From: Escherichia coli | Lineage (GTDB): Bacteria; Pseudomonadota; Gammaproteobacteria; Enterobacterales; Enterobacteriaceae | NCBI RefSeq assembly: GCF_030013205.1 | Contig: NZ_CP122648.1 | Direction: 5' to 3' (one strand) | Length of the DNA stretch: 64,000 bases | Shown: positions 29,188-30,861 of the stretch, piece by piece | Layout of the letters: each line of letters starts with the position of its first letter | How positions within the stretch are numbered: the stretch's first letter is position 1 | The notes under the pieces: generated by a model | The model's database searches: none | What the model was told of the DNA's origin: nothing | Seen by the model: only the letters and a program-made list of their open reading frames with translations | Translations under genes and position numbers: made by a program

Positions 29188-30861
29188 ATGAATATAAAGA
29201 CGATTAACGTCAGCCTTTTGTCTTTTTCTATTATTACAGCATTGTTTCCGTTGAACGCGTTGGCAACAAAATTAACCATTGAGCAGCGCCTTGAACTGCT
29301 TGAAAATGAATTGTCGCAAAATAAACAAGAGCTGAGAGCAACACAGAATGAACTGGGGGTATATAAATCCCGACTTTCGACCTTTCAAAAAAGTATTACG
29401 GAAAATAAATACAAATCAGCCTCACTTGCTGAAATATCAGCGACATCTCCCGTCGCTGATAACATCAAAAATGAAAACGGTGAACAGAACTCGTCTGCCG
29501 CAGCGCATACTATAAATGGATCGCAGCAAGTTGCCGTTATTGAAAGTAAAGGCGACAAAACCACTATCGAAAGCGTGACCCTGAAAGATATCAGTAAATA
29601 TATAAAGGATGATATTGGGTTCAGCTATCAGGGGTACTTCCGCTCAGGCTGGGGTACCGGAAATCATGGCTCACCACAAACTTATGCAGCGGGTTCTCTG
29701 GGACGTTTTGGTAACGAGATGAGCGGTTGGTTTGACTTAACCTTAAATCAGCGTGTTTATAATCAGGACGGTAAAACGGCAAATGCGGTCGTTACCTATG
29801 ATGGCAACGTAGGTGAGCAGTATAACGATGCCTGGTTTGGTGACAGTGCCAATGAAAATATCATGCAGTTCAGTGATATTTATCTGACAACGCGAGGTTT
29901 TTTACCCTTCGCGCCAGAGGCAGACTTCTGGGTAGGCAAACATAAACTCCCGCAATATGAGATCCAAATGCTGGACTGGAAAACCTTAACCACGGATGTC
30001 GCTGCGGGTGTGGGGATTGAAAACTGGGCACTTGGTGTAGGGCTGTTTGATATGTCCTTAAGCCGTGATGATGTCGATGTTTACTCTCGTGATTTTACGC
30101 GTACCAGTCAGATGAATACCAATTCTGTGGATGTTCGTTATCGCAATATCCCGTTATGGGATGATGCAACATTATCATTAATGGCTAAATATTCCGCACC
30201 AAATAAAACGGATCAACAACAAGATAATGAAAATGACGACAGTTATTTTGAAATGAAAGATAGCTGGATGCTGACTTCTGTTTTACGGCAAAACCTGCAA
30301 CGCGATACGTTTAATGAATTTACGTTACAGGTTGCCAATAATTCCTATGCCAGCAGTTTTGCCAGTTTCTCAGATGCCAGTAACACGATGGCGCATGGTC
30401 GCTATTACTATGGTGACCATACCAATGGGATCGCCTGGCGTTTAATCTCTCAGGGCGAGATGTATCTTACTGACAATATTATTATGGCTAACGCGCTTGT
30501 CTATTCTCATGGCGAAGATGTTTATAGTTATGAAAGTGGCGCTCATAGTGATTTTGACAGTATTCGCACCGTAGTAAGACCGGCCTGGATCTGGAATACA
30601 TGGAATCAGACGGGGCTTGAATTAGGCTGGTTTAAGCAACAGAACAAAACACAGCAGGGTGTAACACTAAATGAATCGGCTTATAAAACGACACTCTGGC
30701 ATGCATTGAAAGTGGGTGAAAGCATTTTAGGTTCACGACCAGAAATTCGCTTCTATGGAACGTATATCAATATTCTGGATAACGAATTATCGAATTTTAA
30801 GTTTAATGAGAACAGCAAAGACGAGTTTATGGCCGGCATCCAGGCGGAAGTCTGGTGGTAA
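29188..30861 (+). CDS. Outer-membrane glycoporin of the LamB/ScrY family with an N-terminal coiled-coil extension
   Basis: 557 aa; signal peptide, then a heptad-rich segment ([35 protein letters not shown]); aromatic-rich beta-strand-like body; C-terminal ...AEVWW resembling the LamB-family terminal aromatic residues. Confidence 0.65.

Follow-up and report, generated by a model that had tools for sequence, protein, structure and literature searches.

A BglH/ScrY-type sugar porin in a probable beta-glucoside phosphotransferase cassette of Escherichia coli

The stretch of Escherichia coli DNA analysed here (64,000 nucleotides of contig NZ_CP122648.1, NCBI RefSeq assembly GCF_030013205.1; hereafter the window) carries at 29188..30861, on the + strand, an open reading frame (ORF) of 557 amino acids (aa) with an ATG start. 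We conclude with high confidence that its product serves as the outer-membrane channel in a cassette for the utilisation of beta-glucosides and cellobiose, that the gene is almost certainly bgcH, and that the protein bears an N-terminal extension of the BglH/ScrY type. This extension precedes a barrel of about 18 strands, which places the protein among the sugar porins of the LamB family. Its gene stands fourth in a row of five that point the same way and specify the IIB, IIC and IIA components of a phosphotransferase system (PTS), the porin, and an enzyme of glycoside hydrolase family 1 (GH1); a gene for a GntR-type regulator is divergent from them. The RefSeq entry for the identical sequence, with the same ends, is named "carbohydrate porin" (WP_063085282.1). 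This generic name can be sharpened to BglH/ScrY-type, bgcH-like beta-glucoside porin.

The porin and its barrel

The ATG is preceded at a distance of 6-10 nt by the Shine-Dalgarno sequence AAGGA, and no other ORF of at least 80 aa is listed on either strand within the span of the gene. From the N-terminus to the stop codon the following segments were recognized:

29188..29265, + strand: signal peptide (aa 1-26), with the hydrophobic core VSLLSFSII, an AxA site and a predicted cut between ALA and TK, after A26
29269..29406, + strand: predicted periplasmic coiled-coil segment (aa 28-73), with six heptads and Leu at position a; PF11471 match and modelled helix
29407..29580, + strand: flexible linker rich in Ser, Lys, Ala, Thr and Asn (aa 74-131), of low model confidence and variable among homologues
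29581..29625, + strand: conserved pre-barrel motif (aa 132-146), defined by alignments and common to BglH and more distant members of the subfamily
29626..30861, + strand: LamB-family beta-barrel (aa 147-557) with its WW end, and the stop codon; assigned by PF02264, structure prediction, Foldseek and a profile search of the PDB

An equivalent leader is present in all of the porin orthologues aligned, and because it contains no Cys the protein is not a lipoprotein. The Sec-type leader and the C-terminus, which reads ...QAEVWW in the translation, are both features of outer-membrane targeting. A preliminary description of this locus, made from the sequence alone, had proposed a signal peptide, some 60 residues of heptad-like sequence, and an aromatic-rich, barrel-like body ending in WW. 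The leader and the body were borne out by the cleavage site after A26, by a LamB match over aa 147-557 and by the predicted barrel. The heptads are also present, but they extend over only ~43-46 residues (six heptads), and the remainder of the region consists of linker and motif; the heptad string quoted in that description corresponds to aa 29-63. A heptad helix of ~45 residues followed by ~75 residues of linker and motif makes the mature N-terminal extension about 120 residues long.

The linker of ~60 residues is probably disordered. In the AlphaFold2 (AF2) model its predicted local distance difference test (pLDDT) score falls below 50 at aa 73-132; the segment is compositionally simple, and both its length and its sequence differ between homologues. 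Within the pre-barrel motif, a short helix of low confidence (aa 132-139) was modelled just ahead of strand 1.

Assignment of the barrel rests on several comparisons. The hidden Markov model (HMM) for LamB, PF02264, was matched from end to end (positions 1-378 of 378, aa 147-557) with 276.5 bits against a cutoff of 25.1 and an E-value of 8.9e-82. The AF2 model has a pLDDT of 84.3 overall, and its barrel (aa 145-556), composed of ~18 long strands, scores mostly above 90. When this model was compared with the PDB using Foldseek, the top matches were to the maltoporins 1mpr, 8xcj and 1mal and to the sucrose porin ScrY (1a0t and 1oh2), with target-normalised template modelling (TM) scores of 0.76-0.79 and E-values from 1e-26 to 4e-17; the next best were general porins with TM scores of 0.47-0.58. 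A profile built from 42 family sequences reached LamB in the PDB at ~1e-113 and ScrY (1a0s) at 1.5e-44. The two checks on which the preliminary description had staked its family assignment, the LamB model and the comparison of the predicted structure with LamB and ScrY, therefore both came out in its favour.

In a sequence alignment with LamB, the loop regions of which are uncertain, aromatic residues of the sugar slide have putative counterparts at Y150 (LamB Y6), W181 (Y41), F375 (F227) and W556 (W420), and polar residues of the channel at R152 (R8), R173 (R33) and D263 (D116). W74 of LamB falls opposite A215, next to W216.

The cassette and its substrate

As the preliminary description had noted, the porin gene is placed between the gene for IIA, which ends at 29132, and that for the GH1 enzyme, which starts at 30880 or 30886. 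The genes of the cassette are:

26148..26846, - strand: GntR/HutC-type regulator with a GntR helix-turn-helix domain (Pfam, 8e-19) and a UTRA domain (6e-30), matching the published BgcR; "GntR family transcriptional regulator" in RefSeq
27045..27356, + strand: PTS lactose/cellobiose-family IIB, BgcE-like (PF02302, 5.7e-19; RefSeq)
27471..28793 (RefSeq start; longest ORF from 27432), + strand: PTS lactose/cellobiose-family IIC permease, BgcF-like (PF02378, 1.9e-45; TIGR00410, 5.9e-100)
28821..29132 (RefSeq start; ORF from 28815), + strand: PTS lactose/cellobiose-family IIA, BgcI-like (PF02255, 1.2e-31)
30886..32325 (RefSeq start; ORF from 30880), + strand: GH1 6-phospho-beta-glucosidase, BgcA-like (PF00232, 5.5e-130; NF007154, 1035.6 bits against a cutoff of 624)

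The porin is very likely BgcH, which belongs to the bgc operon of E. coli for the use of beta-glucosides. This identification is based upon gene content and order, the host species, papers citing the operon and the reported content of its original description. The fifth bgc gene in the work of Neelakanta, Sankar and Schnetz from 2009 reportedly specifies a porin, BgcH, and the regulator gene is said to be divergent. The operon comprises five genes, among them those for IIB, IIA, IIC and a phospho-beta-glucosidase; it is reported to support the use of cellobiose, arbutin and salicin, and its positive regulator BgcR is of the GntR type (PMC3585215). Thus bgc and the cassette in the window share the species as well as the content and order of genes (divergent GntR-type regulator, IIB, IIC, IIA, a fifth gene and the phospho-beta-glucosidase).

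E. coli is described as having four systems for beta-glucosides (chb, asc, bgl and bgc; PMC4488073). Of these, bgc is the only one compatible with a GntR-type regulator, a split lactose/cellobiose-type PTS and a GH1 enzyme. The bgl operon was rejected as the identity of the cassette since its fused permease BglF and antiterminator BglG do not fit separate IIB, IIC and IIA proteins with a GH1 enzyme and a GntR regulator, and chb, which has a GH4 enzyme and a regulator of the AraC type, does not fit the GH1 and GntR content; asc was likewise considered and rejected.

From the LamB family, one would expect the porin to form trimers in the outer membrane, in which every barrel lets beta-glucosides such as cellobiose, arbutin and salicin pass by diffusion over an aromatic "greasy slide". 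Uptake and phosphorylation of the sugar would then fall to the IIC permease, with the phosphate relayed via IIA and IIB, and the resulting 6-phospho-beta-glucoside would be cleaved in the cytoplasm by the GH1 enzyme.

The substrate might be another one. The IIB, IIC and IIA proteins do not reach the equivalog cutoffs that NCBIfam sets for cellobiose, chitobiose and lactose, the constriction residues differ from those of LamB as well as those of ScrY, and a variant of the cassette in Kluyvera (see below) pairs the porin with a hydrolase resembling HAD-type sucrose-6-phosphate phosphatases instead of the GH1 enzyme. If the channel were specific for some carbohydrate other than cellobiose and aryl-beta-glucosides, assignment to beta-glucosides would be too narrow. 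We nevertheless consider this unlikely, given that the GH1 protein exceeds the cutoff of the 6-phospho-beta-glucosidase subfamily model NF007154, that BglH, the nearest porin to have been characterised, is one for beta-glucosides, and that the substrates reported for bgc are the beta-glucosides named above (PMC3585215).

The space between the IIA stop codon and the porin start codon is occupied by a stem-loop:

29136..29163, + strand: stem-loop TTTCCTCCAG...CTGGAGGAAA, a perfect 10-bp inverted repeat (minimum free energy, MFE, -20.3 kcal/mol; z -3.4)

A CCUCC/GGAGG stem is found at the same place in the Citrobacter, Salmonella and Kluyvera loci (L006 ~5948-5975, L007 ~5951-5974 and L009 ~5947-5974). 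Since it is spelled differently in these relatives and yet keeps its position, the hairpin is conserved as a structure across the four genera. It might set the stability of the mRNA or the translation of the porin relative to the PTS genes.

The N-terminal helix

The segment between the signal peptide and the linker was matched over aa 30-56 by Sugarporin_N (PF11471, "Maltoporin periplasmic N-terminal extension") with 29.2 bits against a cutoff of 25.7 and an E-value of 1.1e-6. AF2, run on the monomer, modelled aa 31-73 as a single unbroken helix, the part at aa 31-60 scoring above 90 in pLDDT. The helix can be written in heptads with K28, L35, L42, L49, L56, L63 and I70 at position a and I31, L38, N45, T52, Y59 and F66 at position d. 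From L35 to I70, position a thus holds five Leu in succession and one Ile, all at a spacing of seven.

The heptad positions also differ in their conservation. Among 46 distinct versions of the helix, drawn from orthologues and paralogues, mean column entropy was low at positions a (0.67 bits), d (0.39), e (0.38) and g (0.72) and higher at the exposed positions b (1.21), c (1.53) and f (1.89), as one would expect if the helix forms a coiled coil. N45 and T52, although polar residues at position d, are nearly invariant. We regard this heptad-resolved conservation as the decisive evidence for the predicted coiled coil and as stronger than any statistic on the heptads themselves. Together with the Sugarporin_N match, the heptad pattern and the long, confidently modelled helix, it supports the coiled-coil propensity that the preliminary description had anticipated for the N-terminal region.

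In the assembled porin, the three N-terminal helices would most likely pair as a parallel trimeric coiled coil, hanging in the periplasm on tethers of ~60 residues. If ScrY is a guide, this coiled coil would lend stability to the trimer, prolong the sugar path with low affinity, or both. It is distinctly unlikely that on the BglH/BgcH branch the extension, with its tethered coiled coil and its strongly conserved pre-barrel motif TLKDISKY[IV]KDDIGF, is instead a docking device that spans the periplasm to the cognate PTS IIC permease or to peptidoglycan, channelling substrate rather than acting as trimer clamp or sugar slide, and that, separately, the CCUCC/GGAGG hairpin provides dedicated post-transcriptional control of porin output independent of the PTS genes.

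In three positions of the helix, the porin of the window carries minority residues. Codon 66 (29383-29385) encodes Phe at a position d where 43 of the 46 related helices have Leu, and R50 and A51 are also in the minority. These are minor coiled-coil alleles of the lineage matching the window at 100%, which is that of swine enterotoxigenic E. coli, O139-like.

Several results weigh against our reading of the gene and of its extension. For the helix, a run of six Leu, Ile, Val or Met residues at a spacing of seven arises in 2.8% of shuffles of the porin protein and is thus modest evidence by itself, and the hydrophobic moment at a periodicity of 3.5 residues is not significant (p = 0.27). The barrel is divergent from the solved structures, with 17-23% identity in the Foldseek alignments, and full-length ScrY, the sequence of which was taken from a scrK-scrY-scrA-scrB-scrR plasmid locus, is only 23% identical to the porin (BLASTP). 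When the single sequence was searched against the PDB with phmmer, no porin was found at E <= 0.01 or even E <= 10, the only similarities being to tropomyosin and a designed coiled coil, so that the 42-sequence profile was required to reach LamB and ScrY. Two slide or constriction positions that are aromatic in LamB are not so in the alignment (W358 to L514 and Y118 to K265). The identity with bgcH is not based on a sequence match to the published bgc locus; bgc is reported to be cryptic, and the porin may therefore rarely be expressed. Substrate range, trimeric state and coiled-coil formation are all things that we infer.

The results on the helix bear on a different view of it, namely that it is a lone amphipathic helix or a tether binding peptidoglycan or protein, in which the heptads are incidental. 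Besides the hydrophobic moment, this view could invoke the count of hydrophobic residues at positions a and d in 28-residue windows, which was higher in the barrel strands and did not single out the helix, the two polar d residues, and the fact that a monomer model does not address the packing of helices against each other. We think it very unlikely. Five Leu in succession and one Ile stand at a spacing of seven. Among the 46 variants, conservation at positions a, d, e and g exceeds that at b, c and f by a factor of 2-4, and the polar d residues are themselves nearly invariant. Moreover, the segment matches a Pfam domain built on the ScrY extension, in the literature a trimeric coiled coil, and the sole weak similarities in the PDB were themselves to tropomyosin and a designed coiled coil. 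A predicted coiled-coil extension of the ScrY type thus remains our interpretation of this segment.

The island, its distribution and known relatives

The gene order in the window is dgcZ, ydeE, eamA, the island carrying the cassette, marB, marA, marR, marC and ydeA. In K-12 the spacing between marB and eamA is only 30 bp, where the window has an insert of ~6.3 kb. Alignment of the junctions showed that divergence from K-12 begins ~10 bp before the eamA stop codon and ends directly after the marB stop codon and the right-hand hairpin. The G+C content of the island is 0.38-0.47. Outside its genes the following features were noted:

26102..26148, no strand: imperfect hairpin at the left end of the island, just past the eamA stop codon (inverted repeat of 19 nt, 84% complementary; K-12 junction alignment)
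26847..27044, no strand: divergent regulatory spacer, with the CRP-like half-palindrome TGTGATCAATGTACCA at 26961-26976
32352..32375, + strand: perfect 10-bp hairpin at the right end of the island, between the GH1 stop codon and the convergent marB stop codon (MFE -18.8 kcal/mol, z -3.7), probably a terminator

At the junctions (~26093-26148 and 32352-32381) the insert replaces the 30-bp eamA-marB spacer of K-12 together with its hairpin, and the last residues of EamA are altered relative to K-12 from VGS to VRG. Neither direct repeats nor an integrase was seen at the junctions in the comparison with K-12. Consensus scans of the island for promoters and terminators gave matches at chance level, and Rfam revealed no known RNA family inside it. 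Elsewhere in the window, Rfam located STnc560, an Hfq-binding small RNA, with 280 bits at 23393-23606 (+ strand), immediately 3' of dgcZ; K-12 has MgrR annotated in the corresponding region.

The bgc phenotype reportedly depends on CRP and BgcR. The CRP-like pattern TGTGATCAATGTACCA in the divergent spacer has two mismatches and lies ~30 bp upstream of a possible -10 sequence, TATGAT (~26999-27004), a spacing at which this candidate site would suit a class II CRP promoter. Since the number of such patterns over the window equals that expected from shuffled sequence, the site at 26961-26976 is a positional lead only.

Screening of 5426 complete E. coli genomes located the porin gene in 2504 (46%) at a coverage of at least 80% and 96.5-100% nucleotide identity; the island as a whole occurs in 2493 of them. 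Among its carriers is CFT073, in which the same six-gene island lies between marB and eamA. This is consistent with the cluster c1955-c1960 of that strain, described as "6 genes, PTS cellobiose specific" (PMC2831201). Orthologues of exactly 557 aa, with 75-83% protein identity, were found in Citrobacter, Salmonella (mostly subsp. salamae), Enterobacter and Kluyvera. In Citrobacter and Salmonella the divergent GntR gene and the IIB, IIC, IIA, porin and GH1 genes are kept as a unit in different, unrelated chromosomal neighbourhoods, which supports the view that porin and PTS genes were acquired jointly. Along with the discrete, low-G+C insertion relative to K-12, this speaks for the co-acquisition suggested in the preliminary description.

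Kluyvera has a variant cassette (L009 and L010; 3266-8531) in which the divergent GntR gene is followed by genes for IIB, IIC, a 557-aa porin and the HAD/sucrose-6-phosphate-phosphatase-like hydrolase, with neither IIA nor the GH1 enzyme. This suggests re-use of the porin-PTS module in combination with another downstream enzyme.

The architecture of extension and barrel, which the preliminary description had called rare, was overstated in that respect. It has a Pfam domain of its own, it is present in BglH of K-12, and among 42 aligned representatives of the family, a sample in which relatives of the query are over-represented, the barrel is preceded by more than 45 residues in 13, and seven match Sugarporin_N. 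It is typical of the BglH/BgcH branch rather than rare.

The least credible of the alternatives, that the porin has no function in a cryptic operon, being a passenger or a remnant in decay, and is dispensable for beta-glucoside uptake, could draw on the report that bgc, bgl, asc and chb are all cryptic and require activating mutations (PMC4488073), on the statements that bglG, bglF and bglB are required, and suffice, for the use of aryl-beta-glucosides, without BglH, and that insertion elements are frequent in bglHIK-yieJI (PMC2646131), and on the loss of IIA and GH1 from the Kluyvera cassette, but against it stand an intact ORF of 557 aa in ~2500 E. coli genomes at 96.5-100% nucleotide identity, the same length in four other genera and conservation that is position-specific even in the periplasmic helix. 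Intactness, constant length and position-specific conservation indicate purifying selection on the beta-glucoside porin, and the selection documented for its coiled-coil extension is itself position-specific.

Among porins of known structure, LamB maltoporin belongs to the same Pfam family and has the same barrel fold. It shares the C-terminal aromatic residue with the porin of the window and, as far as the sequence alignment can be trusted, appears to share R8, R33 and D116 and the aromatic character of Y6, Y41, F227 and W420. Identity is ~22-26%, and LamB differs in having neither an N-terminal extension nor a Sugarporin_N match, and in serving an ABC transporter whereas the porin described here belongs to a PTS operon.

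ScrY, the sucrose porin of scrKYABR (PDB 1A0S, 1A0T and 1OH2), is closer in architecture. It possesses the same combination of Sugarporin_N (40.7 bits, aa 28-58) and LamB domains and the same fold (TM 0.79), which upholds the likeness to ScrY proposed in the preliminary description, and its gene likewise adjoins a PTS permease and a sugar-6-phosphate hydrolase. Its mature extension has ~75 residues against ~120 in the porin of the window, and the pre-barrel motif KDDIGF is weakly shared (KSGFEF in ScrY). The solved ScrY chains (413 residues) lack the extension, so that there is no experimental structure of this domain for comparison. In the literature, the extension of ScrY figures as a trimeric coiled coil in the periplasm, rich in glutamine and with an unclear role in translocation (PMC6173795). 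One proposal is that it acts as an "extended sugar slide" (Dumas et al. 2000, as cited in PMC6173795), and deletion of 70 N-terminal residues is stated to shift the properties of ScrY towards those of LamB (Schulein et al. 1995, as cited in PMC4753733). Since the role of the coiled coil in ScrY-type porins is unsettled in the literature, a well-conserved porin of E. coli that comes in many natural variants could be a convenient test case.

The closest characterised relative is BglH (YieC) of the K-12 bgl operon, with 53% identity and 69% similarity over the full length. It has the same Sugarporin_N (45.6 bits, aa 29-59) and LamB architecture, and the two proteins have in common the start of the helix, LT[IV]EQRLELLE, and the pre-barrel motif TLKD[IF]SK[YF][IV]KD[DE]IGFSY. 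The bglH gene also lies in a PTS beta-glucoside operon, adjoining the gene for a GH1 phospho-beta-glucosidase, and BglH is a carbohydrate-specific porin, as demonstrated by Andersen, Rak and Benz (1999, as cited in PMC2646131). With 538 aa it is smaller, its linker being ~20 residues shorter and its heptad stretch also shorter. In the bgl operon the IIBCA domains are fused in one permease, BglF, and BglG acts as antiterminator, in contrast to the split IIB, IIC and IIA proteins and the GntR regulator here.

The title of the bgc paper (Neelakanta, Sankar and Schnetz 2009, Appl Environ Microbiol 75:2284) stresses septicemic and uropathogenic strains, whereas the porin gene, being present in nearly half of the complete genomes, is apparently distributed more broadly. 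Taken together, the feature is already known at three levels: as an architecture defined in Pfam, through its close paralogy to BglH, which has been characterised, and, very probably, as the published bgcH. The locus departs in nothing from these existing descriptions, and its significance extends little beyond correct annotation as the probable beta-glucoside porin of the bgc operon.

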